This document shows positions 418-33,881 of a DNA stretch of 46,518 nucleotides, in pieces (positions within the stretch are counted from its first letter, which is position 1; every line of letters starts with the position of its first letter). This stretch comes from a candidate division WOR-3 bacterium (lineage in GTDB: Bacteria > Hydrothermota > Tepidihabitantia > SM23-42 > JAOAFX01), in NCBI GenBank assembly GCA_037444665.1, contig JBBILZ010000012.1, forward strand, positions 1 through 46,518. Direction: 5' to 3'. The position numbers were made by a program, and so were the translations under genes. The notes beneath the pieces are model-generated. The model had not been told where the DNA came from, made no database searches, and saw nothing but the letters and a program-made list of their open reading frames with translations.

Positions 418-717
418 TTAAATTTTTTCAAATTTTATTTTTATCAATCCTAAGTTTGCCTCTTTATCACTGATAATGAATAGAATACCATCGGGTTTTG
501 CTTTAGCAAGAAATACTAAATTTTCTGTATACAAAATAATTGAAGCATTTTCTTTTCCAAAACTTGTTTTCAGCTGGTTTACAATTTTTGCGGACATAGC
601 CCCGAATTTCTCAGCATCATAGCCATGAGCAAACTGGCTATCAATTATAAAACCATCATAGCTTGCCACACCCGCACCAAGGACATGTGGTATCTTTGTA
701 AGGTCAAATAGATTCAT
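418..717 (-). CDS. Roadblock/LC7 (MglB-like) domain protein
   Basis: 99 aa; VLGAGVASYDGFII...KEANLGLIK pattern typical of the Roadblock/LC7 fold. Confidence 0.75.
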   Translation of the reverse strand: MNLFDLTKIPHVLGAGVASYDGFIIDSQFAHGYDAEKFGAMSAKIVNQLKTSFGKENASIILYTENLVFLAKAKPDGILFIISDKEANLGLIKIKFEKI

Positions 718-719
718 AA

Positions 720-1766
720 TTATCCCAGTATTTTTATTATTTCTTCAATAATTTTCCGAGCATAAACAAACACGAGCCCGGGTTTTGCCTCAGGTTTAGT
801 AATAATACAAAGCAGAGATTCACCGGCAGTAATTGCACAAATTGTCTCATCTTTATTTTCAATGATAAATTTTTCCAAGCCACCTGCTTTAAGAAATTTG
901 AATGCATTATCTGCCTCATTAAAAATTCCTGCAATAAGGGCACAAAGTTCTTCCAGGTCAGATTTTTCAGGATAATAACTCTGAATTAAAAGTCCATCAC
1001 GGGAAAGGATAAAAGCACCTTTGACTGTTTTTATAGCAGTCAATTTTTGCATCGGCGCATTCAGGGCATCCAGCGGACTCGGCTTTTCTATTCTTTCTTG
1101 TTCAACAACTGGTTCAAGACCAATTTCGGGCAGAATTGGCACAGATTCAATAGGTTCAGTGACTGCCGGTTTTTCTGCTACAACCTTTTCCGGCTCTATA
1201 ATTTTTTCAGGTTCTGGTTCTTTCTGAGTAATTGCTTCAGAAGTGGGTTCAATCTTTTCAATAATTTCTTCAACCTTCACCTCAGGTATAATCGGTTCTT
1301 CTTTTGGAACAGCGACCATCTCTGGTGTAACCGGCTCGGTCGGTTTTTGAATTTCAACAACTGGTTTTTCTGCAGGCTCAACTCTCGCTCCTTCTGGCTT
1401 TAATAAACTTAGTTCTTGTTTTGCTTCCTTATTTTCAGGATTAATCTTTAATGTTGCATCATAGAATTTAATCGCCTTTTCATAGTCTCCCAATTTCTTA
1501 TGGATATGGCCCAGATAAAGGTTCTCATTCTCACTCTCCTTTGCCTGCTCATATATCTCTTCCAGTGTCTTCAGTGCCTGTTCTGTTTCGCCTTTAAGAT
1601 AATATGCCCTGCCCAGAATTATTTTCGCAAGTGTATAATTGGGGTTTCTGTTTAACCCATCTTTTAATATAGAAATTGCTTCATCAACCATACCTGAGGA
1701 AAGATAAACATCAGCAAGTGTAGCAAAGATCAGAGCTTTTGAATCCATTGCAAGTTCATCAGGCAT
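720..1766 (-). CDS. TPR protein with Pro/Glu-rich linker and C-terminal Roadblock/LC7 domain
   Basis: N-terminal TPRs (FATLADVY...; LGHIHKKLGDYEKAI), a PE/K-rich linker, then VKGAFILSRDGLLI...AKPGLVF. Confidence 0.8.
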   Translation of the reverse strand: MPDELAMDSKALIFATLADVYLSSGMVDEAISILKDGLNRNPNYTLAKIILGRAYYLKGETEQALKTLEEIYEQAKESENENLYLGHIHKKLGDYEKAIKFYDATLKINPENKEAKQELSLLKPEGARVEPAEKPVVEIQKPTEPVTPEMVAVPKEEPIIPEVKVEEIIEKIEPTSEAITQKEPEPEKIIEPEKVVAEKPAVTEPIESVPILPEIGLEPVVEQERIEKPSPLDALNAPMQKLTAIKTVKGAFILSRDGLLIQSYYPEKSDLEELCALIAGIFNEADNAFKFLKAGGLEKFIIENKDETICAITAGESLLCIITKPEAKPGLVFVYARKIIEEIIKILG

Positions 1767-1796: not shown

Positions 1797-4181
1797 TTAT
1801 ATTTCCTTTTTTAAAAATTCCATCATTTCCATTGTGATATTCAGACAATGTGTTATTTTATTTGTAAGTTCCTCATCAGGGCTCAAAAGCATAGCCTTTT
1901 TCCAAAAACCGCACGCTTCTTCAAATCTACCTTCCTGGACTAAAAGGATTCCAAGATTATAATATGGAAGCGGTTTGGAAGGCTCAATCTCAACCGCACG
2001 CTCCAGATAGGTTTTTGCTTTTAAGCGCTCACTTTTTTCTAACCAGTACTGCCCGGCAGAAATATAAAAATCATAAACTTCTGGTCGTTCATTTTCAAGA
2101 AAATCAATAAAAATCTTTGCCTGTTCTAAATCTTTTTTCTTGATATATATATTCAAAAGTCCAAGGTTTACCGCAATATCATTTTTATTCTTCTCATACA
2201 ATTGAGTATAGATTTGGAGGGCTTCATCAACTTTATTTAATGCAAGATTGATATTGGCAAGTTCAGTGAGCCATTCTACATTATCACTCTGGATATTCAA
2301 TAATTTTTTATACTGGTCCTTTGCCTGATTTAACCTGCCCAGAGATTTTAGCATACCAGCAAGTGTGAGCATTACATTTAAATCATCAGGATGCCTGCGG
2401 CTATAGTTATCCAGTTGATTGAGTGCATCATCAATATTATTGGATTGGAACAAAATCTTTGACTTCAATATGATTGCTTCACTCATCTCTGGCACAAGTT
2501 TCAGCGCTTCATCTATCATATTTAACGCCTTATCATAATCTTTGTTCTTCAAAAAAGACTCTGCTTCTTGGATATAATCTTGTGGTGTGGGCACTTCAAG
2601 TGTTGGAAAGAATTCTTCAACTTCTTCAACAATCTTTTCTTCAATCTTTGGTAGAATATAATAAGGTCCAAACTCATATAATTCCGACGCAATCGCAATA
2701 CGATACTTATCTTTTTCATAATTTGGCTCTATCTCCATTCCGCGCCGGATATTTGAAAGTCCTTCTTCAAATTGTCCAATCTTCATCAAAAGAAATCCTA
2801 AATTATAATATGCTCCAGTATAGGTGGGAAGTAAACCAATTATTTTTCTGAACGCAGTGATTGCCTCTTCATCTCTGCCAATTTCTGCATAGACCAGCCC
2901 CCGGAAAAATATACTATCAACATTGTCGTCATTAAATATTTTTAAAGTATATTCATAATCACCTTTTTTAAAATAATACATTCCTAAATTATACTTCGCC
3001 TCTTCACTACCCTGGTCTTTTGCGGTATTAAAATTCTTTATGGCTTCTTCTATATCATTTAATAAATATTGAGATAAGGCAAGATTGGTTAATGCCTGGA
3101 CATAATTCTTATCTACTCCCAGGGTCTTTTCAAAATAGTTTTTTGCCTGTTTATAATCATGTTTTTTCAGGTAAAAAACACCCATCCCATTGAGCCCGCG
3201 TGTAAAAAGTGCATCCAATTCAAGACAGCGGCTAAAATATTTTTTTGCCTCTTCAAGTTGATTTAAAAATATGCTCACTTCACCAAGCGCAGCAAAAAGT
3301 TCTGCGTCATTATCCTTTAATTTTAAAGCCTCTTCAAATTCCCGACGGGCCTCAGTAAAGAGCCCTTTATTACGATATGTCATACCGAGGTTAATATGTG
3401 CCTGATATTCGTTTATTGATGTCTTAGGAACACCAAGCTGCTCTTTCAAAAATTCCAGATGGCCCTTATGTTCTTTCAATTCAATCGGTAGATTCGGCTC
3501 AAACTGAGCCAAAGCAGGGTTTATCTGAATAGCCTTTTTTATCTCCTCCCTGCCCTCTTTATGCATCCCCTTTTCACCATAGGCAAAGCCTAAAAAGAAG
3601 TGTGCCTCCGCAGATGAAGAATCAAGGAGCAATGATTCCTGAAAATTTTTTATCGCAAGGTCAATTATCCCTTTGTTGAAATATATTTCACCGAGAAGAC
3701 GATAACCCTCAGGCGATATCTTTATCTCTAAACTCTTTTTAATTTCTTCAAGGGCATCATCGTACTTACCGAGATTTTTGAGGGTAATACCCAACCCGAA
3801 TCGGGCTTCATAAGAACCCGGATTAAAATCAAGAACTTTACGGTAATAAATTATTGCCTGCGAATATCTATTCAATTTGCGATATGTGTCAGCAAGTTCT
3901 AAGGTCTTTATTTCATCAAATGGTTCAACCTCAATGTGATGCGCAAGTTCTTTTACCCGATTGTCCAGTTTTCCAGATTTCTTAAGAATAATCTCTAAGT
4001 TGTTACGAGCAAGAATGAAATTGGGGTCAATACTCAATGCCTTTTCTAATTCCTGAATCGCCTCTTCGTAGAGCCCTTTATTGTAGTATACTACTGCAAG
4101 GTTATTATGTGCACCCGGGTCATTATCCGGAATCCTTTCCGCAAAACTCTTCAAAACTTTATATTCTTCAGGTGAAATCAT
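1797..4181 (-). CDS. Large tetratricopeptide repeat protein
   Basis: 794 aa of tandem TPR motifs (AHNNLAVVYYNKG, AHFFLGFAYG, AYYNLGFLL). No signal peptide. Confidence 0.9.
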   Translation of the reverse strand: MISPEEYKVLKSFAERIPDNDPGAHNNLAVVYYNKGLYEEAIQELEKALSIDPNFILARNNLEIILKKSGKLDNRVKELAHHIEVEPFDEIKTLELADTYRKLNRYSQAIIYYRKVLDFNPGSYEARFGLGITLKNLGKYDDALEEIKKSLEIKISPEGYRLLGEIYFNKGIIDLAIKNFQESLLLDSSSAEAHFFLGFAYGEKGMHKEGREEIKKAIQINPALAQFEPNLPIELKEHKGHLEFLKEQLGVPKTSINEYQAHINLGMTYRNKGLFTEARREFEEALKLKDNDAELFAALGEVSIFLNQLEEAKKYFSRCLELDALFTRGLNGMGVFYLKKHDYKQAKNYFEKTLGVDKNYVQALTNLALSQYLLNDIEEAIKNFNTAKDQGSEEAKYNLGMYYFKKGDYEYTLKIFNDDNVDSIFFRGLVYAEIGRDEEAITAFRKIIGLLPTYTGAYYNLGFLLMKIGQFEEGLSNIRRGMEIEPNYEKDKYRIAIASELYEFGPYYILPKIEEKIVEEVEEFFPTLEVPTPQDYIQEAESFLKNKDYDKALNMIDEALKLVPEMSEAIILKSKILFQSNNIDDALNQLDNYSRRHPDDLNVMLTLAGMLKSLGRLNQAKDQYKKLLNIQSDNVEWLTELANINLALNKVDEALQIYTQLYEKNKNDIAVNLGLLNIYIKKKDLEQAKIFIDFLENERPEVYDFYISAGQYWLEKSERLKAKTYLERAVEIEPSKPLPYYNLGILLVQEGRFEEACGFWKKAMLLSPDEELTNKITHCLNITMEMMEFLKKEI

Positions 4182-4185
4182 ATTA

Positions 4186-4797
4186 TCAAATTAAATTCAA
4201 TTTTTTAAGCATAATTTCCAAACTTGAATTATCCGGTAACAAGAGAAAGAATGCCGAAAGTGGTTTATTAAAATCGCCAAAATCAAACTGGGTCTCAATA
4301 CAGAAAATGAAGTCCTTCTCATTCCCGAATTCCACAATAACACTTGAAAGAACTGCGCCCACCATATCAATGATCATCCCTGGCACTGAGGGAAGAATCA
4401 ATAAGCCCAATAGGTCACCAAGGGCATTCATATAAGCACACGATAGGATATTTGATACTTCCTTCAATAGTGATTCCTGAAGTTCAATGGTATTCTCCTG
4501 GTCTTCAGGCATCAATAATTTTGTCAATTCCTGGGCATCATCATAAGGATAAATGAGCAGAGTTCTACCAGTGAGGTCACCAAGAAAATATAATAAAACT
4601 GAAGCCACCACATCATTCGGGTCAGCAATCTTTAGAATTACTTCCTCAAGCTGTCCAGTATATAGTTTAGGGACTCTAATCATCACCTTTTTCCCTAAAA
4701 GCTGGGATAAAGATGTTGCTGCATGGCCGCCACCAATATTTGCAATTTCAGTCAATGCATCAATTTGTTTTTCTGTAAGATTTTTTGCATCAATCAT
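4186..4797 (-). CDS. cheC: Chemotaxis phosphatase CheC
   Basis: Two ExxN motifs: DALTEIANIGGGHAATSLS and LLKEVSNIL. Overlaps the cheA stop. Confidence 0.9.
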   Translation of the reverse strand: MIDAKNLTEKQIDALTEIANIGGGHAATSLSQLLGKKVMIRVPKLYTGQLEEVILKIADPNDVVASVLLYFLGDLTGRTLLIYPYDDAQELTKLLMPEDQENTIELQESLLKEVSNILSCAYMNALGDLLGLLILPSVPGMIIDMVGAVLSSVIVEFGNEKDFIFCIETQFDFGDFNKPLSAFFLLLPDNSSLEIMLKKLNLI

Positions 4798-6302
4798 TCA
4801 AAACCCCTTGGTTCAAGAATTAAAATAGGTTTACCATCGGCATAGACAGAACATCCTGAATATAAAGAAGAAGGTAATAGTTTATCTGCCTTCTTTACCA
4901 CAATCTCCTGTTCATCAATAATTTCATCAGTCACAAATCCCCTTTTTTTACCTTCATAATCAACCACAATGACTGATTTTTTTCTTGATTTATGTGAAAA
5001 ATTCAATTTTTCTCCTATGTTAACCAAAGGCAGAATGTCATCTCTTAACTTCAAAAGGTCGCGCTTATAGACCCTTTGCACACTATTTTCATCAATATAG
5101 AATGACTCCCGAATATAACTTAATGGTAGTGCGAAGCGCTGGCCACCAAGACCAAAAATGATGGCTCTAATAATTGCGAGGCTGATGGGCAGCTCAATGG
5201 TAAATTTAGAACCCTTGCCTTTTTCAGATTCAATTTCTAAGTTCCCACCCAACTCACCCACTAACGAATGGACAATATCAAGCCCGATTCCCCGTCCTGA
5301 AACTGCTGAGACATCCTTTTTCGTAGAGAAATCTGGCCTCAGCAAAAATTTATACAAATCTTCTTTGCTCAATTTTTGCGCTGATGTCTGGTCAATCAAT
5401 TTCCTCTCCACAACCAATCTACGAATTTCTTCTACATCAATACCCCGACCATTATCAATTACACTGATTCTTATGAATTCACGCTCTTTGGTTGCCTGTA
5501 ATATGATCTTACCTTCTTTTTCAATACCATGGTCAAGCGCATTACGCAAAAGATGCATAATTGGTTCTTTGAGGACATCAATGATTGAACGGTCAACCTC
5601 AACTTCTCCACCAATCATCTGAAAATCAATTTCTTTGTTCTGTCTCTTTGCTTCATCTCTTAACCAGCGCGGGAAAAATTCAAAGACGGTCGTTAATGGC
5701 AGCATCCTCAATCGTGCCACTTCATCCTGTAATACTGCAATTAGTCTTGAAGCAGTCTCGCTGAGCGTCTGTAATTCAATACTGCCCATCTCTGAACTTA
5801 TTTTATTTAATCTTGACCGGACAATAAGCAGTTCATTTGTAAGATTGAACAATGTATCAAGCTTTGCCATCTTAATTTTTATTTCACCCATCTCCTGTGT
5901 TGCGGTTATTGATTTTTCAATGGCAACCTCTTTACCTTCTTTAATATCCTCGCAGGTCTTCAACAGCATCTCAGTAGATGGCAACATACTTTTGTTCTTT
6001 AAAGCCTTTATAAAATTACTCAGAAAATCGGTAATCACAAAGATAAAATCAACGACCCGTTTATCAATTTCACCTTTTGTCTTGGGTTCAGAGAGTAAAT
6101 CTTCTATTGAGTGAGTAAGATTACCTAAATCTTCAAAACCCATTGTTTGTGCCATCCCTTTAATTGTATGCAAAATTCTGAAAACTTCAAGAATTGCCTT
6201 ACGATTTTTGGTATTCTTTTCAAGATCTAAAAGTTCACGGTCTAATTGTTTTATATAAGATTCAATTTCACTAATAAAAAGGTCTAAATATTCTTCCATC
6301 AT
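4794..6302 (-). CDS. cheA: Chemotaxis histidine kinase CheA (no P2 domain)
   Basis: HPt FRILHTIKG, HLLRNALDHGIE, DNGRGID, SGRGIGLDIV, C-terminal CheW-like domain; only 502 aa. Confidence 0.95.
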   Translation of the reverse strand: MMEEYLDLFISEIESYIKQLDRELLDLEKNTKNRKAILEVFRILHTIKGMAQTMGFEDLGNLTHSIEDLLSEPKTKGEIDKRVVDFIFVITDFLSNFIKALKNKSMLPSTEMLLKTCEDIKEGKEVAIEKSITATQEMGEIKIKMAKLDTLFNLTNELLIVRSRLNKISSEMGSIELQTLSETASRLIAVLQDEVARLRMLPLTTVFEFFPRWLRDEAKRQNKEIDFQMIGGEVEVDRSIIDVLKEPIMHLLRNALDHGIEKEGKIILQATKEREFIRISVIDNGRGIDVEEIRRLVVERKLIDQTSAQKLSKEDLYKFLLRPDFSTKKDVSAVSGRGIGLDIVHSLVGELGGNLEIESEKGKGSKFTIELPISLAIIRAIIFGLGGQRFALPLSYIRESFYIDENSVQRVYKRDLLKLRDDILPLVNIGEKLNFSHKSRKKSVIVVDYEGKKRGFVTDEIIDEQEIVVKKADKLLPSSLYSGCSVYADGKPILILEPRGFE

Positions 6303-6318
6303 TTTTTAATTCAATTAT

Positions 6319-6678
6319 TTATTTTTTCATTATTCGTTCAATTGATTCCAGCACCCTTGAGGGTTGGAATGGTTTAACAACATAGTCTATTGCGCCCGCC
6401 TGAACTGCTTCAAGAACCAATGCCTGTTGACCCATTGCTGAAACCATTAATATCTTTGCCTTCGGGTCAATTTTTTTAATCTCTTTGACCGCCTCTATTC
6501 CGCTCATATCGGGCATAATAATATCCATTGTTACCAGTTCAGGTTTCAATTCTTTATAACGCTCAACTGCCTCTTTACCGGTTGACGCTTCTCCGCACAC
6601 AGTATGTCCGCCTTTTTCTAAAATATCGGTTAGCATACGACGCATAAACATTGCGTCGTCAACGACCAGGATTCTCAT
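6319..6678 (-). CDS. cheY: CheY response regulator
   Basis: VVDDAMFMR, TMDIIMPDM, SAMGQ, VKPF; GGAGG RBS upstream. Confidence 0.95.
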   Translation of the reverse strand: MRILVVDDAMFMRRMLTDILEKGGHTVCGEASTGKEAVERYKELKPELVTMDIIMPDMSGIEAVKEIKKIDPKAKILMVSAMGQQALVLEAVQAGAIDYVVKPFQPSRVLESIERIMKK

Positions 6679-6761: not shown

Positions 6762-6789
6762 ATTTTATCATAATTTTGAAAAAAGTCAA
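6762..6789 (-). promoter_or_regulatory. Sigma70-like promoter for cheY-cheA-cheC-TPR-Roadblock
   Basis: TTGACT-N16-TAAAAT with extended -10 TGn. Confidence 0.6.
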
Positions 6790-6796
6790 GATTTTT

Positions 6797-7207
6797 TTAT
6801 GTTAATACCTTTTGAAGATTTAGAATAAGAATTGGCTTTTCATCTGTTTCATAGACACCGAGGAAAAAATCCTTCTCTTTCTTTGTAGAAAGCAGTTCAG
6901 AATTTTTGTTAATATTTTTTTCGTTGATCTTCTTTGTTCCTACAAGTTCATCAACACGCAAACCAGCAATCCGTTCATCCTCTTCAACAACCAGCGAGAG
7001 ATTGCAGATTTCATCACCACTCAAACCCAGACGTCTTCGTAAAGAAATAATCGGTATAACTTCTCCACGAATATTTGCAAGACCCAGAAGAAACTCGGGC
7101 GCTCTGGGCACAGATACAACTGCGGGCAGTTCTGTTACTTCACGCACCTTTTTTATATCCAGACCAATCAATTCATCAAGTATTTTAAAAATAATCAAGG
7201 TATCCAT
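6797..7207 (-). CDS. cheW: Chemotaxis coupling protein CheW
   Basis: VPRAPEFLLGLANIRGEVIPIISLR. Start reassigned to ATG 7207 (MDTLIIFK), immediately after the upstream stop. Confidence 0.9.
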   Translation of the reverse strand: MDTLIIFKILDELIGLDIKKVREVTELPAVVSVPRAPEFLLGLANIRGEVIPIISLRRRLGLSGDEICNLSLVVEEDERIAGLRVDELVGTKKINEKNINKNSELLSTKKEKDFFLGVYETDEKPILILNLQKVLT

Positions 7208-7208
7208 A

Positions 7209-10200
7209 TCACACACAATAAAGGTTACGAAAACGGACAATGCCAAATGGGTCAACAACAAAACCTTTGATGTCCTTCTTAACCGCATAACAATCAACTC
7301 CGTGAGACAAAAAGACCCAGAGCGCATTGTCAACAATCCATTTTTCTATTTTCTGATATAATTCAATGCGGCGACGCGGTAACTGTTCAGAACGTGCAGA
7401 CTCAATCATTTTATCAAGTTCTTCATCAGAATAGAAAGACGTGTTGCCACTGGCACCAAAACTATGAGAATGGAAAAGCGTATAGGTGAAATTGTCTGGG
7501 TCGCCATTATCTGAAACCCAACCCCTTAAACTCATTATACTATTGCCACTATAAGTTTTTTCCAAAAATTCCTCCCAGGATAAAGGATTGATTTGAAGAT
7601 GGATGCCGATCTTACCGAGCGAATCCCTTAAAAATTCTGCCCTTTTTACTGAATCCTTGCCAGTTCTCACATCAAGCACAAAAGTATCGGGTATGCCTGC
7701 ACCGTACCCTGCCTCTTTCATCAGTTCCCTTGCCTTTTTAAGGTCATAAGGGTAACCAATTATGTTATTGTTATATCCGGGCAATCCTGGTGGATAAACA
7801 CCACGAGCAGGGATTGCTTTTTCTTTAAGTAATTCGCGACAATAATATTCTTTATCTATCGCATAATTCATTGCCTGGCGCACACGCACATCTAAAAATG
7901 GAGATTTTTTAGAAAAGTTGACGGTGAGATATTGAGTGGAAAGCACTGAACCTGAACAGATATCTTCTGGTGAAAATTCCTTTAGCATATCTGAAGTCAA
8001 ATTCAATATTGATATCTCACCTGCCTTAAATAGTTCTAATGCCTCTTTATCATCGGCAACCTTTTTGATGATACATTCATCAATGTAAGGTCTGCCATCA
8101 AAAAAATCATCAAATGCCTCAAGAATAACTTCTTTGTCTTTTTCGTAAGAAATCAACTTAAATGGACCACATCCAATTGGGCTCTCTGTATTCCAATCCT
8201 GCGGCACAATATCACCAACACCGCAGGCAAGGTTTGCAAGAAATGGAACATAAGGGAATTTCAACATAAATCTAATATGATACGGGTCTATTACTACAAT
8301 ATCAGAGAGATACTCAAAAAAATTCGCATTTGGTCCCTTTTTCACACGATTTAAAGAACTGAGCACATCTTTAGCCAGAACCTCTACACCATTGTGAAAT
8401 TTTACCCCTTTCTTTATATAAAAATCCCAAATTCTACCATCTTCAGAAACAGAAAATGAACGGCCAACAGCAGGAATTAAATGATTTAACTGGTCAAATG
8501 TATAAAGACCTGTGAATATCTGTTCAATAACCTGATGGCTTGTTGTATCAGTTCTAATAGCAGGGTCAAGGACAATCGGGTCTTCTGTTGTCCGAAAAAC
8601 GATTCTCTTTTTCTCCGCAGGTATGAATGTAATCTCTTTTTTAAATTCCTGAACAACACCCGCCATCTCTTTTGTCAATGCCTTTTCTGATTTTATTGTT
8701 TCATTATAGGTGACAAAATATTCACTTATTTTTTTATATTCAGATTCAAAATTCCGATGGTGCTCTCCGAGCAGACCACACTGGCTTATCATCTGCTCTG
8801 TAGAACCGAGCATTTCCTGACAAAGGGCTGAAAGATTATCAATAACTTTAATACTTTCATTCACCGCAACTAAAGAGGTATTTAAGGCATCCTGCCCTAA
8901 TTCTACATCTCCCAAGCCTCTAATAAAACAGGAAATGAGCACCTTAAAATCCTTCATAATTTCATTTTTTAAAACATCAATACTTGCGACAAACTCTAAT
9001 GACCTTACGGAAAGCGTTTTTATCTCATTAGTCACCACCTCAAGTGCACTCGCATATTCACCACTTCTGGCACTTTCAATACCAGCATATAATCCGAGTA
9101 ATTTAGAGCGCTCAGTAATTCTTTTTAACTCCTGTAATGGTTTATCAACTTTGTTAATAAGTTCCTTTAACTTATATGATTTATTATTTAAAGAACTGAG
9201 TAATTCTCTAATATCCTGATAAAATACTTTAGCCCTGGAAAGTGTCTCATTGGCAAAATTATGTGTTTTTGACCAGGACTTTATCCTTTCTGTAATCTGT
9301 ATAATAATTTCATTAAGATGTTTAGCTTCAGCAACAAATTGAAGAATAAATCTTTCTGCAGAATACAGGTCAAGTTTTTTAAATGCGCCACCCACCAACT
9401 TATCAAATCCCTCTTCTATTTGCGGTTCGTTCTCTAATATTTTACTGAATGTATTAAAGAAACAATTAAAATTATAATCATCGTCTACTGTCATCAAATT
9501 ATTCTTAACATTATTTAAGTGTTGAAAAAATGCTCCTAAAAATATTTCAGTTATTGCTGTAGTTCTTGTTATATTATATATCTCTTCCAGATATACGGGT
9601 AATTTTTCACTTTCCTGATGCAAATTTGTATGCAATTCTTTCTGTGTCGTAATAGTTTTAGATACATCTTTTATTGCATTTTCAAGATAAGGGACTAAAT
9701 TGAGTAATTCATTATTTATATTTATAAATTTTTCTGCAATCTCTTTTAAATAATCTATTACACCCTGAATTTTCTTTAAATCCTGTGCCAATTCCTCAAC
9801 CCCAATGATTAATTCATTGATAATAGTAGGAATGGTTTTCGTAGGTTTTTGTGAATGGCGCACCAGACCTGTCATTTCTCGGGCTATCACTTCAAACCCT
9901 CTACCCTGTCTGCCCGCATGATAGGCGGTGATCCCGGCATTGCGAGAAGCAACTTCAATTGACTCGGATACAAGTCCAATATCCTGAATTATTCCACCAA
10001 GTTTATCTGCCTGCTGGTGAATTTTCTTAAGAATATCTGTTATATTATTGAGGTCAAAACTGACCTTCTCTGATATGGTAAGCGAATCATTAAAATTTTT
10101 AATACTTTTTTTTAGCAGTTCATGTGTTTTTTTGATTTCATTATCAAATACTGCGACTCCTTCAAAAACGAGCTCTACGGTGACAGATAGATTATAGAAC

Positions 10201-10352
10201 CTTTGGCGGATTTCAACGAGAAGTTCTGAACTGATCTGAAGCGTATTATCAATATTTTGACCAGTATTTAAAAAATTATGGAAGTTCGCATCATATTGTG
10301 ATAACAAAGGCTTAAGCCTTGCGATAAATTCTTCGCGAAAACCATTATCCAT
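7209..10352 (-). CDS. Soluble chemoreceptor-like protein: two MCP signalling hairpins fused to a family-5 (Opp/Dpp-type) solute-binding domain
   Basis: Hairpins ASRNAGITAYHAGRQGRGFEVIA and KLLGLYAGIESARSGE. SBP_5 motifs LDPA, GVKFHNG, PIGCGPF, VRQAMNYAID. Start ATG 10352. No TM segment or signal peptide seen. Confidence 0.85.
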   Translation of the reverse strand: MDNGFREEFIARLKPLLSQYDANFHNFLNTGQNIDNTLQISSELLVEIRQRFYNLSVTVELVFEGVAVFDNEIKKTHELLKKSIKNFNDSLTISEKVSFDLNNITDILKKIHQQADKLGGIIQDIGLVSESIEVASRNAGITAYHAGRQGRGFEVIAREMTGLVRHSQKPTKTIPTIINELIIGVEELAQDLKKIQGVIDYLKEIAEKFININNELLNLVPYLENAIKDVSKTITTQKELHTNLHQESEKLPVYLEEIYNITRTTAITEIFLGAFFQHLNNVKNNLMTVDDDYNFNCFFNTFSKILENEPQIEEGFDKLVGGAFKKLDLYSAERFILQFVAEAKHLNEIIIQITERIKSWSKTHNFANETLSRAKVFYQDIRELLSSLNNKSYKLKELINKVDKPLQELKRITERSKLLGLYAGIESARSGEYASALEVVTNEIKTLSVRSLEFVASIDVLKNEIMKDFKVLISCFIRGLGDVELGQDALNTSLVAVNESIKVIDNLSALCQEMLGSTEQMISQCGLLGEHHRNFESEYKKISEYFVTYNETIKSEKALTKEMAGVVQEFKKEITFIPAEKKRIVFRTTEDPIVLDPAIRTDTTSHQVIEQIFTGLYTFDQLNHLIPAVGRSFSVSEDGRIWDFYIKKGVKFHNGVEVLAKDVLSSLNRVKKGPNANFFEYLSDIVVIDPYHIRFMLKFPYVPFLANLACGVGDIVPQDWNTESPIGCGPFKLISYEKDKEVILEAFDDFFDGRPYIDECIIKKVADDKEALELFKAGEISILNLTSDMLKEFSPEDICSGSVLSTQYLTVNFSKKSPFLDVRVRQAMNYAIDKEYYCRELLKEKAIPARGVYPPGLPGYNNNIIGYPYDLKKARELMKEAGYGAGIPDTFVLDVRTGKDSVKRAEFLRDSLGKIGIHLQINPLSWEEFLEKTYSGNSIMSLRGWVSDNGDPDNFTYTLFHSHSFGASGNTSFYSDEELDKMIESARSEQLPRRRIELYQKIEKWIVDNALWVFLSHGVDCYAVKKDIKGFVVDPFGIVRFRNLYCV

Positions 10353-10360
10353 ATATGTTA

Positions 10361-10388
10361 ATTTTATTAAATTTTTGCCACTTGTCAA
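10361..10388 (-). promoter_or_regulatory. Sigma70-like promoter for the chemoreceptor-cheW genes
   Basis: TTGACA-N16-TAAAAT; ATG follows 8 nt later. Confidence 0.6.
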
Positions 10389-10396
10389 TGGGAAGT

Positions 10397-11293
10397 TTAG
10401 ATGAGAAAAATAATTGTAACACCACAAAGTGCAATGATTGTGCCAATTATTGAAATATAGGTGATTCTTTCTTTAAAGACCCAGTGCGAAATTGGTATAA
10501 GGATTACTGGCGGTAATGCCATCAATGTTGATGCGATTCCTATATAAGCATACTGAATTGCTACTAAGGAGAGCCAGACTCCGATGAATGGACCGAAGAC
10601 CGCACCACCAAGCATTGCCAAATCTGCCTTTTTATTGACCAATTTACTCAGAGTCTTTTTTGTCTCTCCCTGAAAAAGAGTTATTAACCAGATGAAAATT
10701 GCGCCAAATAGCACTCTAATTAAATTGCCTGAAAGTGCTGAAAAATCATTAAGCAGGAGCCCTTTTTTTGAAGCAAAATAGCCAAGAGCCTGGCATAACG
10801 AAGCCAAAATTCCGCAGACCACTCCCGTAAAAAAATTTCCTTTCTTTGTGTTTTCGCTCGTTTTGTCATAAAGAACCATAATGATGCCGCAAATTGTAAT
10901 AATAATTGCAACAATTTCTAAGAAACTCAAAGATTCTTTAAGGAATATCCAAGCTAATACAGTTCCAAAGATAGGAGAAAGTGACATCAATAGCATAGTC
11001 AGACGAGGTCCAATCAGAACATATCCACGAAACAAAAATGTATCACCAATAGTGAATCCGATTACACCGGAGATACCAAACCAGAACCAGTGGTATGGCT
11101 GGGCATTTAAAGGAAGCACCATCCCGGATATGAGCCAGTGCGTAAAAATTAAAAAAAGCATACCCAGAACGAGCCTGATGCGGTTGACCTCAGTTGAGCC
11201 AATCAACCGGGAAGCGATTGTAAAAAATACAGAACCAAATGACCAGCAAAATGAAGTTCCCAATGCAGCAAATTCACCAATATACCTGTTCAT
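10397..11293 (-). CDS. DMT/EamA family transporter
   Basis: About 10 hydrophobic helices in two EamA repeats (GFTIGDTFLF, LSPIFGTVLAWIFLKE, FKERIT). Confidence 0.9.
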   Translation of the reverse strand: MNRYIGEFAALGTSFCWSFGSVFFTIASRLIGSTEVNRIRLVLGMLFLIFTHWLISGMVLPLNAQPYHWFWFGISGVIGFTIGDTFLFRGYVLIGPRLTMLLMSLSPIFGTVLAWIFLKESLSFLEIVAIIITICGIIMVLYDKTSENTKKGNFFTGVVCGILASLCQALGYFASKKGLLLNDFSALSGNLIRVLFGAIFIWLITLFQGETKKTLSKLVNKKADLAMLGGAVFGPFIGVWLSLVAIQYAYIGIASTLMALPPVILIPISHWVFKERITYISIIGTIIALCGVTIIFLI

Positions 11294-31686: not shown

Positions 31687-32463
31687 TTAAGATTCTCCTG
31701 ACAATTCTAAAGAAACTTTTTCTACAGTTTTTCTAACTTTTTCAATATCCTCTATATTATCAATTATCGGCTTAAGATAATTTTCGCTAAAAACTACAAA
31801 GCCATTTTTGAGTAGAATAAAATATTTGCGAAAAGAATCTAATGCCTTTACATAGCCATTTTTATCCTTAACTCTGGGACTTTCACTTCTTCTTACGAAT
31901 TCTTCAATATTGAAAACAGCATACGGAATGGTAATTACAGTCTTCTTGCTCCCAGCTGTTCGCGCTTCTTTTCTTTGGCTTATCTTAGATACTTGAAAAT
32001 TAATCTCATTAACTTTTGCATCTATTCCTTTAACATCCAGTTCTGCATTACATTCAAGTCGCAAGTTCTTATTTTCTTTTGCGCAGACATACTCAAACAT
32101 ATAACAAAAGTCTAACTGCGTGAGAACTGAAACCCAGGTTCTATACATTCTGGCTTTGAATCCTTTCTTAAACCAACCATCATTGTCTTTATCAAAATAG
32201 TACTTCTTAAATTGCCTAAGTGCTCCTTTACTTTGAGGTTCTGTATTAATTTCTTCCCAAAAAGTTTCAAACCAATCTTCAAAACTTAAAAATTCTCTTG
32301 TTTCCCAGTAATACTTGAAAATTGATGCCAGCGGCAATATTTCTTTAGGTAAATTCTGTTCTACCCATTTAATATCTTTTAATTCTTCTCTATATTTATC
32401 CAGCGGGATGCTTTCAAGAAATTTACGATATTTTCCAAAGTCTTCAATGGGATTTTTCTTCAT
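31687..32463 (-). CDS. TaqI-family type II restriction endonuclease
   Basis: IKWVEQNLP, ARMYRT..S..TQ.DFCY, ELDVKGIDA, IPY and NGFVVF parallel R.TaqI as recalled. ATGA overlap with the MTase stop supports ATG 32463. Confidence 0.88.
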   Translation of the reverse strand: MKKNPIEDFGKYRKFLESIPLDKYREELKDIKWVEQNLPKEILPLASIFKYYWETREFLSFEDWFETFWEEINTEPQSKGALRQFKKYYFDKDNDGWFKKGFKARMYRTWVSVLTQLDFCYMFEYVCAKENKNLRLECNAELDVKGIDAKVNEINFQVSKISQRKEARTAGSKKTVITIPYAVFNIEEFVRRSESPRVKDKNGYVKALDSFRKYFILLKNGFVVFSENYLKPIIDNIEDIEKVRKTVEKVSLELSGES

Positions 32464-33881
32464 AATTTTGCCTCTCTTTTTATCTTTTGCCATTCTCTTT
32501 TATTTGGTAAAGGTAAGTTTTTTAATTGAGTAATACTTAAATGATAAGTTATTTCTCTATAAGTATCTTTCACATATTTTCTTAAATATTCTGAGTTAAG
32601 ATATTCAACCACCTCTGAATCATTTAAATCATATTCAACCGTAAACAAATCACTTTTTCTTAAAAGATGGTAAACATCTCCCATCCAGGGGTAACATTTC
32701 CCATCAATTGCAGCAGCAACTTTCCCATTTTCTCGAAACCCTAATCCGACTACAATATGAGGAATAGAAAAATATGTGCGAAGTTTCTTTGCATCTGTTT
32801 TTTTAATCCAGTAGCCTGTAAAGTTATCATAGATAATTTTCCCACATTTTAGATTTCTACCATTCAAAAGTGGGAAATAATTATTTTTGTTGGTTCCTTT
32901 ATAGTTTTCATTTTTTATTATGTAATCATTATTTTTTATTTCCGGGGTCCTTGGAGAAATTCTTATTTCATAAACATCTTCTAACTTATAAGAACAATTA
33001 CTCTCTAAGGTGCTGGTCCAATCTGTCTCAAACTTAATCACTTCACCTTGCCAGTTAGAGTCCATTTTTATTGTCCTAATTTTGTTGTCTCTATATTCTA
33101 AAAATTCTAATCTATGAACAAACCTATCAGATCTAATAAAATTTAACACAACCGATGAAACATCTGCCTCTGGTTTAAATATATCTGGTCCCATATAGAT
33201 TATTGCGGTTCCTCCATTTTGAGATAAAAAAGTTCTCAGTTTTTTAAATTCATCGAGAATCATAAATGTTGCAGGAATAATAAAAATTAGTTGTCCTTCA
33301 GGCTTAAGCAATTTAATGGATTTCTCTATAAAGGCACCGTAAACATTGTATTTTCCATACCAGGTTTCATAAAGACTTTTATATCTTTCTTTAGTAGAAC
33401 TGTCCACTTTGATTGTATAATGATCAGAAAGACTTGGAATGCCATAAGGTGGATTTCCTATTATTAAATCAAAAAAGAATGATGATTGCCATAAAAGATA
33501 ATCAGCATTAATTATCTCAATATCATTTCCAATATTTACAGTGGCTAAATAATTGACAATGTCTCGATTAATTTCTACACCAAAGAGTTTTGCTTTTTTG
33601 AAAACAGCGGGCAAATTCCTTTTTATTCCGATTAGAAACTGTGCCAAACCACAGGCAGGTTCTAATATGGTAATACCCTTCTTATCAAAAAATTTAGCCA
33701 CATCAATAAGGTTAACCATAAAATCAACGACCCATTCCGGAGTGAAAAACATTCCATAATCTTTCTTGATACTTTTTAGATTGTCATTCACTATGCATTG
33801 ATGGACTTTGTAGTCCACCAATGCTTCTTCTCTCACCAGTAATGGTTTGTATCTGTTTTGCCGATATTTTATCTTTTTCAT
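32460..33881 (-). CDS. TaqI-like N6-adenine DNA methyltransferase (gamma class)
   Basis: TPEWVVDFM, LEPACG, GNPPYG, GKYNVYGAF and GRNLK parallel M.TaqI as recalled. Confidence 0.92.
   Translation of the reverse strand: MKKIKYRQNRYKPLLVREEALVDYKVHQCIVNDNLKSIKKDYGMFFTPEWVVDFMVNLIDVAKFFDKKGITILEPACGLAQFLIGIKRNLPAVFKKAKLFGVEINRDIVNYLATVNIGNDIEIINADYLLWQSSFFFDLIIGNPPYGIPSLSDHYTIKVDSSTKERYKSLYETWYGKYNVYGAFIEKSIKLLKPEGQLIFIIPATFMILDEFKKLRTFLSQNGGTAIIYMGPDIFKPEADVSSVVLNFIRSDRFVHRLEFLEYRDNKIRTIKMDSNWQGEVIKFETDWTSTLESNCSYKLEDVYEIRISPRTPEIKNNDYIIKNENYKGTNKNNYFPLLNGRNLKCGKIIYDNFTGYWIKKTDAKKLRTYFSIPHIVVGLGFRENGKVAAAIDGKCYPWMGDVYHLLRKSDLFTVEYDLNDSEVVEYLNSEYLRKYVKDTYREITYHLSITQLKNLPLPNKREWQKIKREAKL

Follow-up and report, generated by a model that had tools for sequence, protein, structure and literature searches.

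The receptor gene and its product

The window analysed here is a stretch of 46,518 nucleotides from a candidate division WOR-3 bacterium (contig JBBILZ010000012.1), and the subject is its gene P0001, which encodes a soluble chemoreceptor with two tandem methyl-accepting chemotaxis protein (MCP)-type hairpins followed by a family 5 solute-binding protein (SBP) domain, SBP_5. P0001 belongs to a real, conserved and unstudied receptor family. The parts of the gene are given below, with tip residues numbered as in Tsr.

7209..10352, (-): tandem-hairpin cytoplasmic chemoreceptor with a C-terminal SBP_5 domain, P0001, 1047 amino acids (aa)
10361..10388, (-): sigma-70-like promoter match, TTGACA-16-TAAAAT, 11/12, ending 9 nt before the ATG at 10352
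9489..10352, (-): hairpin 1, helices a1 and a2, residues 1-288
9882-9950, (-): hairpin 1 tip motif, retaining N381, V384, G390 and GRGF; L380 is Arg, E385 is Thr/Lys, R388 is His
9363..9488, (-): variable linker with short helices, residues 289-330; site of the first SBP_5 in tandem relatives
8631..9362, (-): hairpin 2, helices a3 and a4, residues 331-574
9033-9104, (-): hairpin 2 tip motif, retaining L378, L380, V384, E385 and R388; N381 is Tyr, GRGF is gone
7212..8615, (-): DppA-like SBP_bac_5 domain without a signal peptide, residues 580-1047

On translation the frame is open over 1047 aa (7209-10352, minus strand). Pfam detects MCPsignal in two stretches (E 1.5e-24) and SBP_bac_5 (E 5e-80), and each hairpin separately clears the MCPsignal cut-off of 34.6 bits, with 54.1 and 43.5 bits. 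Both halves of the hairpin region match Tsr and Thermotoga MCPs by sequence and share long gap-free diagonals with a membrane MCP of the same genome (contig C15), and the hairpin model aligns to 2ch7_A with a template modelling (TM) score of 0.67 over 314 columns. No hydrophobic segment is present in P0001, where the top 19-residue Kyte-Doolittle mean is 1.24 and lies in the SBP domain. Among 91 family representatives the mean exceeds 1.6 in seven, five times within the SBP domain and twice at residues 38 and 82. These representatives were obtained by reducing 144 sequences, 22 of them chosen by tip motifs, at 80% identity; the counts leave aside proteins shorter than 1000 aa, the DosM-like protein L063, all 36 paralogues and all two-SBP forms.

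A sequence-only reading of this stretch had proposed a 1047-aa frame without a transmembrane segment, two MCP hairpins and a full family 5 domain from about position 8610. The open translation and low hydrophobicity bear out the first point; the HMMER searches that it had suggested match both domains above cut-off, the predicted structure has the hairpin fold, and the SBP fold takes up the rest of the chain from about residue 580 (8615). The tip motifs that it had picked out are real, although the ranges quoted for them were slightly wide. It had also noted that cheW lies 1 nt away, and a single base does separate the receptor stop codon from the cheW ATG. A chimeric assembly of two genes, of which it had warned, is rejected: SBP_bac_5 is also present in 66 of 70 matches to the N-terminal 580 residues (those named by phylum being WOR-3), the family is conserved, and the whole stretch is spanned by an independent 33-kb contig from run X3, with 172 differences. 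Run X4 seems to contain these same data, and run X1 may be where this DNA comes from.

A longer start, TTG at 10427 with a leader, is disfavoured, since most homologues are 1043-1051 aa long and M1 is nearly invariant. The ATG at 10352 is preferred for these reasons and for the promoter-like match upstream, one of the two best in a region that holds 53 such matches (37.8 +/- 5.7 in shuffles). From its position, the receptor mRNA would be nearly leaderless.

Complementary signalling tips and a predicted single-chain bundle

The tip numbering relies on offsets of 243 for hairpin 1 and -41 for hairpin 2, taken from tool alignments, and matches were scored against the conserved positions of 19 single-hairpin MCP-SBP5 proteins, 13 in the N-helix and 10 in the turn and C-helix. 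The consensus is split helix by helix between the two hairpins. At the N-helix positions the better match is hairpin 2 in 84 of the 91 representatives, with six ties (means 7.7 for hairpin 2 and 5.1 for hairpin 1, of 13); at the turn and C-helix positions it is hairpin 1 in 89, with two ties (means 8.1 for hairpin 1 and 4.0 for hairpin 2, of 10). P0001 itself scores 5/13 and 8/10 in hairpin 1 and 8/13 and 5/10 in hairpin 2, so that neither tip is complete and the halves are complementary; what the sequence-only reading had said of one protein is thus upheld family-wide. A separate duplication (P0127, P0144 and P0168) has the same polarity, in 3/3 for the C-helix half and in 2/3 for the N-helix half.

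The substitutions at the tips are invariant across the family and were therefore selected rather than produced by decay. In the N-helix of hairpin 1, position 380 is Arg in 91 sequences, N381 is kept in 90, 384 is Ile/Val in 91, 385 Thr/Lys in 90, 387 aromatic in 91 and 388 His in 81, while its turn and C-helix keep G390, G393 and G395 in 91 each and F396 in 89. In hairpin 2, position 377 is aliphatic in 89, L380 is kept in 87, 381 is Tyr in 91, E385 is kept in 91 and 388 is Arg/Lys in 88; G393-R394-G395 is lost, and Leu stands at 396 in 88.

The predicted structure suggests how two half-tips could be combined. AF2 (AlphaFold2) models of the full-length protein and of the hairpin half both average 88 in predicted local distance difference test score (pLDDT); the chain turns at the tips and is interrupted at 289-330. 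The hairpin model aligns to the single-chain four-helix bundles 6z0c (residues 47-535, Z 21.3, root-mean-square deviation (rmsd) 2.3, 199/199) and 1yo7 (residues 62-517, Z 13.4, rmsd 1.8, 120/120); since both are compact and are matched across both hairpins, the model is folded back. Prediction of the receptor alone, as the sequence-only reading had proposed, thus returns hairpins predicted to fold back as a four-helix bundle with both tips at one end. Together with the family-wide split and the tandem relatives described below, this supports the single-chain pseudo-dimer that it had imagined.

In such a bundle, a3, the N-helix of hairpin 2, would lie beside a2, the C-helix of hairpin 1, and make one near-canonical face, and a1 with a4 would make a remodelled face having its own invariant residues (R137, N138, aromatic 144 and H145). 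The Tsr positions given as contacting CheW in both core-complex models are I377, L380, N381, V384, R388 and R404 (PMC13098124). Five of these six are retained in kind in hairpin 2 and two of six in hairpin 1, and for this reason the hairpin 2 N-helix was picked for contact with CheW and the P5 domain of CheA. We lean towards an arrangement in which the canonical face docks CheW and CheA-P5 and the remodelled face forms a private trimer axis or binds another partner. The reverse assignment appears rather unlikely, and it is more doubtful still that no trimer is formed at all.

The lengths of the arms and their covariation were also considered. Three arm segments have a single length in 89, 91 and 87 of the 91 sequences, the a3 arm has two main lengths one heptad apart, and 17 different lengths, between 80 and 136, occur in the middle. 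With the tips excluded, the a1-a4 covariation is highest at i+j 577 (expected, 578), with z 3.55, a value reached by 2/60 random and 0/60 near-relative swaps; the control centre of 150 was picked after earlier passes had been seen. The covariation gives modest support to the folded-back pairing, in which only a1-a4 clears its controls. In a first pass, invariant tip columns had inflated the apparent strength, and follow-up shuffles with shifted baselines were discarded; the top pairs of a mean-field direct coupling analysis were noise.

A homodimeric rod with a tip at each end, spanning two CheA/CheW baseplates of a cytoplasmic array with the SBP domains at its middle, would be the arrangement of DosM, which has two tandem signalling domains and is described as forming such a rod (PMC7534058, PMC9321776). 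The tip spacing is close (282 in P0001, 300 in the DosM-like L063 protein), and the outer arms, each of about 145 residues, would be long enough to cover the middle. Each hairpin having half of the consensus, an opposite-ended homodimer would carry two copies of a half-degenerate tip, and no complete face, at either end, whereas the L063 tips are nearly whole (13/10 and 9/9). L063 is moreover accompanied by a triple CheW, absent from the P0001 operon; the middle of P0001 is broken by turns, varies by non-heptad amounts and holds an entire SBP in relatives; the P0001-family hairpins do not group with those of L063 in the tree; and the a1-a4 covariation would not be expected. The model, the variation of the linker and the covariation, none of which views the oligomer directly, speak against the rod, and we regard it as improbable. 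Hardly more promising is a subunit-swapped oligomer, in which hairpin 1 pairs with hairpin 2 of another chain and the linker ties pseudo-dimers into a soluble lattice. It would present the same heterotypic tip pair, the sequence evidence for pairing of hairpins 1 and 2 fits cis and trans alike, and engineered single-chain Tsr does swap subunits, with a suggested relevance to natural soluble single-chain receptors in that report (PMC4692393). The linker of P0001, at about 40 residues and with part of it helical, is short, however, and closure in the model is in cis.

Several observations weigh against the folded-back pseudo-heterodimer or the face assignment preferred here. N381 breaks the polarity of the split, being retained in hairpin 1 (90/91) and replaced by Tyr in hairpin 2 (91/91). 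Hairpin 2 retains E385-R388, which favours the reverse assignment because these residues bridge at the trimer axis of Tsr and are reported not to be critical outside it (PMC6681711). A monomer prediction must bury hydrophobic faces, and a DosM chain alone might fold into the same bundle. The a2-a3 covariation peak (i+j 580, expected 578) has a z of only 1.08 and is reached by 9/60 near swaps; the within-hairpin positive controls are weak (z 1.23 and 0.88), one wrong-orientation control gives 1.77, and there is no signal on parallel diagonals.

Relatives, sensor domain and operon

A profile search over 1.84 billion representatives returned one-SBP tandem forms, then single hairpin-SBP5 proteins (about 820 aa, canonical tips) and then (hairpin-SBP5)x2 proteins of 1605-1687 aa. 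Those single forms that carry a name come from clostridia (Hathewaya, Haloimpatiens), and Bacillota make up most of two Atlas clusters of such proteins. P0101 and P0246 (1605 aa) are (hairpin-SBP5)x2 forms with the same split-tip polarity, an SBP between the hairpins and a tip spacing of 797; in P0129, P0134 and P0242 the first SBP is decayed and the spacing is 686-687; in the P0001 family it is 262-322. As the doubled relatives carry the same split tips, a fused dimer is the natural origin of P0001. Hairpin 1 aligns to the single-hairpin family over 290 columns without a gap (E 3e-34). In the hairpin tree, made by a quick method with long branches flagged, first and second hairpins fall into two groups, and within the first-hairpin group the two-SBP forms branch as sister to every one-SBP form (89, 98*). 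P0127/P0144/P0168 and the DosM-like L063 go back to duplications of their own. The former three constitute a second, independent (hairpin-SBP5)x2 lineage, related to the clostridial single forms.

The SBP trees group both P0101 SBP domains with all one-SBP forms (98*), and a single origin of the one-SBP forms, by one loss, is compatible with the data (p-AU, from the approximately unbiased test, 0.67). On the other side, the FastTree SBP tree nests the last SBP of the two-SBP forms among the one-SBP forms; because of this nesting, and since the trees lack an outgroup root, the order of events is not proven. The simplest reading is the order single, doubled, decayed and lost first SBP, in which tandem duplication of a hairpin-SBP5 gene would have been followed by division of labour between the tips and then by decay and loss of the first SBP. 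There may be an even chance that the duplication freed the 'inside' and 'outside' trimer subunits to specialise, giving each dimer a canonical kinase-binding face, a new invariant face and a single sensor, and that the same split arose twice, every step being represented by living intermediates. In 4/4 loci of tandem forms whose first SBP is decayed (L091, L092, L095, L096), the receptor gene overlaps the end of a gene of 561-563 aa; the one such gene scanned encodes a PilB-like ATPase that has an MshEN domain, which hints at a connection with pili.

At E 1e-25 the two-hairpin profile has matches in 96 of the phylum's 272 genomes, and in 87 of those the score is better than 1e-56; the remaining nine hold ordinary MCPs or L063. 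Of 80 family loci, all except L063 (79) carry SBP_5, and one family member comes from an Edwardsbacteria genome. A scan of genome contigs found mostly stand-alone SBPs, with 7/79 loci being the tandem family or its C-terminal part and L093 one more likely fragment. An orphan paralogue in the same genome, P0072 (G000:C44:9333-12482, also designated L006:9333-12482), has the same two-hairpin and SBP_5 build, is 29% identical to P0001 and is followed on its contig by a gene for a 726-aa coiled-coil protein. Its family is sister to the P0001 group within the order, with both tips further decayed and che genes downstream in 0/20 loci. Other proteins met in the searches include P0138, P0141, P0154, P0157 and kin, single-tip MCPs of about 1060 aa with a C-terminal SBP_5 (P0138 with an N-terminal hydrophobic stretch, and one cluster member from Acidobacteriota), and the L063:884-11432 locus (G084), where the DosM-like receptor stands with triple CheW, cheB, cheR, cheY and cheA, an F9-type cluster in this phylum.

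Sequence, fold and NCBIfam all place the C-terminal domain nearest to DppA. It aligns to 6ofq_A (Foldseek E 5e-33, TM score 0.83), and the DppA model of NCBIfam scores best, at 195.7 bits, short of its cut-off of 1005. W945 and D948 correspond to DppA W433 and D436 (precursor numbering) and are conserved in 89 and 88 of the 91 representatives, as are the further pocket residues D602, a family-specific acidic position (87), and W926 (82). The Arg and Asp of DppA presumably hold the two ends of the dipeptide, and the title of entry 8z1z names R383 and D436. On the other side, the counterpart of the Arg is uncertain: R383 aligns to T897, with an Arg one residue off, at 896, in only 54/91. A weak match to SgrR was also found, SgrR being a cytoplasmic SBP_5 sensor. 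None of the eight BPD_transp_1 permease matches in the genome lies on the receptor's contig. Two exported-type SBP_5 genes occur elsewhere in the genome (G000:C20:34550-36091 and C68:7672-9216), each followed by a gene whose product has an N-terminal hydrophobic stretch, is not an ABC permease and is perhaps a signalling partner. SBP_bac_5 as a family is described as having no clear ligand preference, peptides being almost half of its known ligands and the others including nickel, glutathione, sugars and haem (PMC10443332), so that sensing of intracellular peptides, suggested by the sequence-only reading, stays an inference here.

The domain might instead be a structural cap or lack a regulatory ligand, the receptor acting as a scaffold or brake whose altered tips fix the CheA state or sequester CheW. 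Changes in Tsr such as E385T/K and those at R388 are reported to yield shifted or locked outputs (PMC6681711). The strict methylation motif, as we take it to be defined, occurs at Q512-E513 in only 10/91 (E513 itself in 72/91, E64 in 79/91), and the further decayed, che-less P0072-type paralogues would fit as well. Set against this are the strong conservation of the four pocket residues and the two-SBP forms, in which the first SBP decayed and the last was retained, so that a scaffold or brake seems the least probable of the alternatives.

P0001 leads a same-strand operon whose other members are listed here.

6797..7207, (-): cheW, single domain, 1 nt past the receptor stop
6762..6789, (-): second promoter-like match, 10/12 with TG, in the gap between cheW and cheY
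6319..6678, (-): cheY
4794..6302, (-): cheA, 502 aa, with Hpt, dimer, HATPase and CheW domains
4186..4797, (-): cheC phosphatase
1797..4181, (-): TPR protein, 794 aa, conserved in the operon
720..1766, (-): TPR and Roadblock/LC7 protein, conserved in the operon
418..717, (-): small Roadblock/LC7-like protein, slightly below the Pfam cut-off

Among 59 orthologue loci, picked for spread from the best family matches, cheW lies downstream in 53 and cheA in 48; of the others, several end at a contig edge, three have cheW only and four have no adjacent che gene. The CheA of the operon is the only one found in its genome, which also encodes three CheW proteins, two membrane MCPs elsewhere, and CheR, CheD and CheB on contig C6. 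The latter belong to a cluster (G000:C6:17271-24305, L168) of Roadblock, DnaA-like ATPase, DUF4388-TPR, cheR, cheD, cheB and TPR genes. Since genes of this type directly follow the che operon in L023 and L175, the two look like one split operon. FliG was not found in this genome (99.5% complete), which encodes PilB- and PilT-sized ATPases of the pilus type; clear FliG occurs in 7/272 genomes of the phylum and in 0/87 carrying this receptor. Two observations speak against a fixed bond between receptor and kinase: in families f24 and f25 the che cluster persists in the absence of this receptor, which is therefore an input and not a core part, and complete two-SBP forms were seen in a context without neighbouring che genes. 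The f24 and f25 loci (L169-L173) read cheW-cheY-cheA-cheC-TPR with no upstream receptor gene, the L173 contig beginning just before cheW.

Elsewhere around these loci, a CstA-family transporter gene is divergent upstream of the receptor in two genomes (L010:2918-4597, L011:3307-5019), and a TaqI-like restriction endonuclease and methylase pair lies at 31687-33881 (-) of the window, in a stretch of lower GC. The conserved E26 of CheW was considered as a compensating change and dropped, since Thermotoga CheW shares it.

Proposed mechanism and comparison with known systems

Taken together, P0001 is probably a soluble single-chain pseudo-heterodimer with one sensor on helix a4 that feeds a Dif-like, non-flagellar pathway, and the receptor likely reports a small intracellular molecule to the chemosensory kinase encoded beside it. 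The SBP lobes would close on a ligand that bears a free amino group, for which a short peptide is the likeliest single candidate; closure would shift helix a4, which is directly joined to the SBP domain, and thereby alter CheA activity. Phosphorylated CheY (CheY-P), reset by CheC, would then control an output other than flagella, for which type IV pili or a surface polysaccharide are the likeliest candidates.

Within a receptor homodimer, the trimer axis and the contact with CheA and CheW depend on one set of residues, and separating these roles is a stated open aim (PMC4692393). The P0001 family appears to have separated them, and the residues required for each role can be predicted from the substitutions that are invariant in it. 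If this is true, the family would allow separate tests of both roles that trimer-contact residues play, for which engineered single-chain Tsr was not a clean tool, and would define intracellular peptide-type chemosensors with a C-terminal sensor as a class. The receptor being soluble, it could be reconstituted in vitro with CheW, CheA and CheY. The input is asymmetric, one sensor acting on one helix, and the cytoplasmic use of an SBP_5 domain is unstudied. In about one third of the genomes of a little-known phylum, this family is the main input candidate of a non-flagellar chemosensory system.

Neither tandem signalling domains nor a C-terminal SBP_5 is new by itself, since the former are known from DosM and the F9 class and a single hairpin with SBP_5 makes up a wider Bacillota family. 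The fused architecture put forward in the sequence-only reading is therefore supported as such, each of its two elements alone existing elsewhere. The combination of two hairpins with SBP_5 was not found described in the open-access literature searched, where tables of sensor-domain surveys might list MCP-SBP_5. DosM (Vibrio cholerae VC1403) resembles P0001 in being soluble, in its two tandem MCP signalling domains and in its similar tip spacing. It is reported as a rod with a tip at each end and a triple CheW, 98% of its homologues having no sensor (PMC7534058, PMC9321776), whereas P0001 has complementary half-tips, one C-terminal sensor, a single-domain CheW and CheC; membership in the DosM/F9 class is rejected on account of the single-domain CheW and the sensor domain.

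The engineered single-chain Tsr~Tsr likewise carries two receptor subunits per chain and was meant to separate axis and periphery roles; it signals, and the same report mentions natural soluble single-chain signalling domains of unknown role (PMC4692393). Its subunits are identical, transmembrane, joined by an artificial linker and prone to swapping, whereas P0001 is natural and soluble, with subunits diverged by invariant differences. The single-hairpin MCP-SBP_bac_5 proteins of Bacillota (WP_142414233.1 from Hathewaya; P0121, P0195) share the order of a soluble hairpin and then a related SBP_5, with one canonical tip, from which a homodimer carrying two sensors is presumed; the literature searched yielded no study of these proteins.

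The operon recalls Dif-like clusters (Myxococcus dif; Geobacter, PMC2577667) in having CheW, CheY, CheA and CheC together, CheD, CheR and CheB in the genome, no flagella, and extra genes of unknown role beside the che genes. The receptor of those clusters is described as of class 44H with two membrane segments (PMC2577667), whereas here it is a soluble tandem protein, and the P0001 system is accompanied by TPR, DUF4388, Roadblock and DnaA-like genes. Finally, a DppA-type domain as chemoreceptor input has a parallel in DppA with Tap of E. coli, where DppA is a separate periplasmic partner (PMC8050422); in P0001, the corresponding domain is fused, cytoplasmic and C-terminal.

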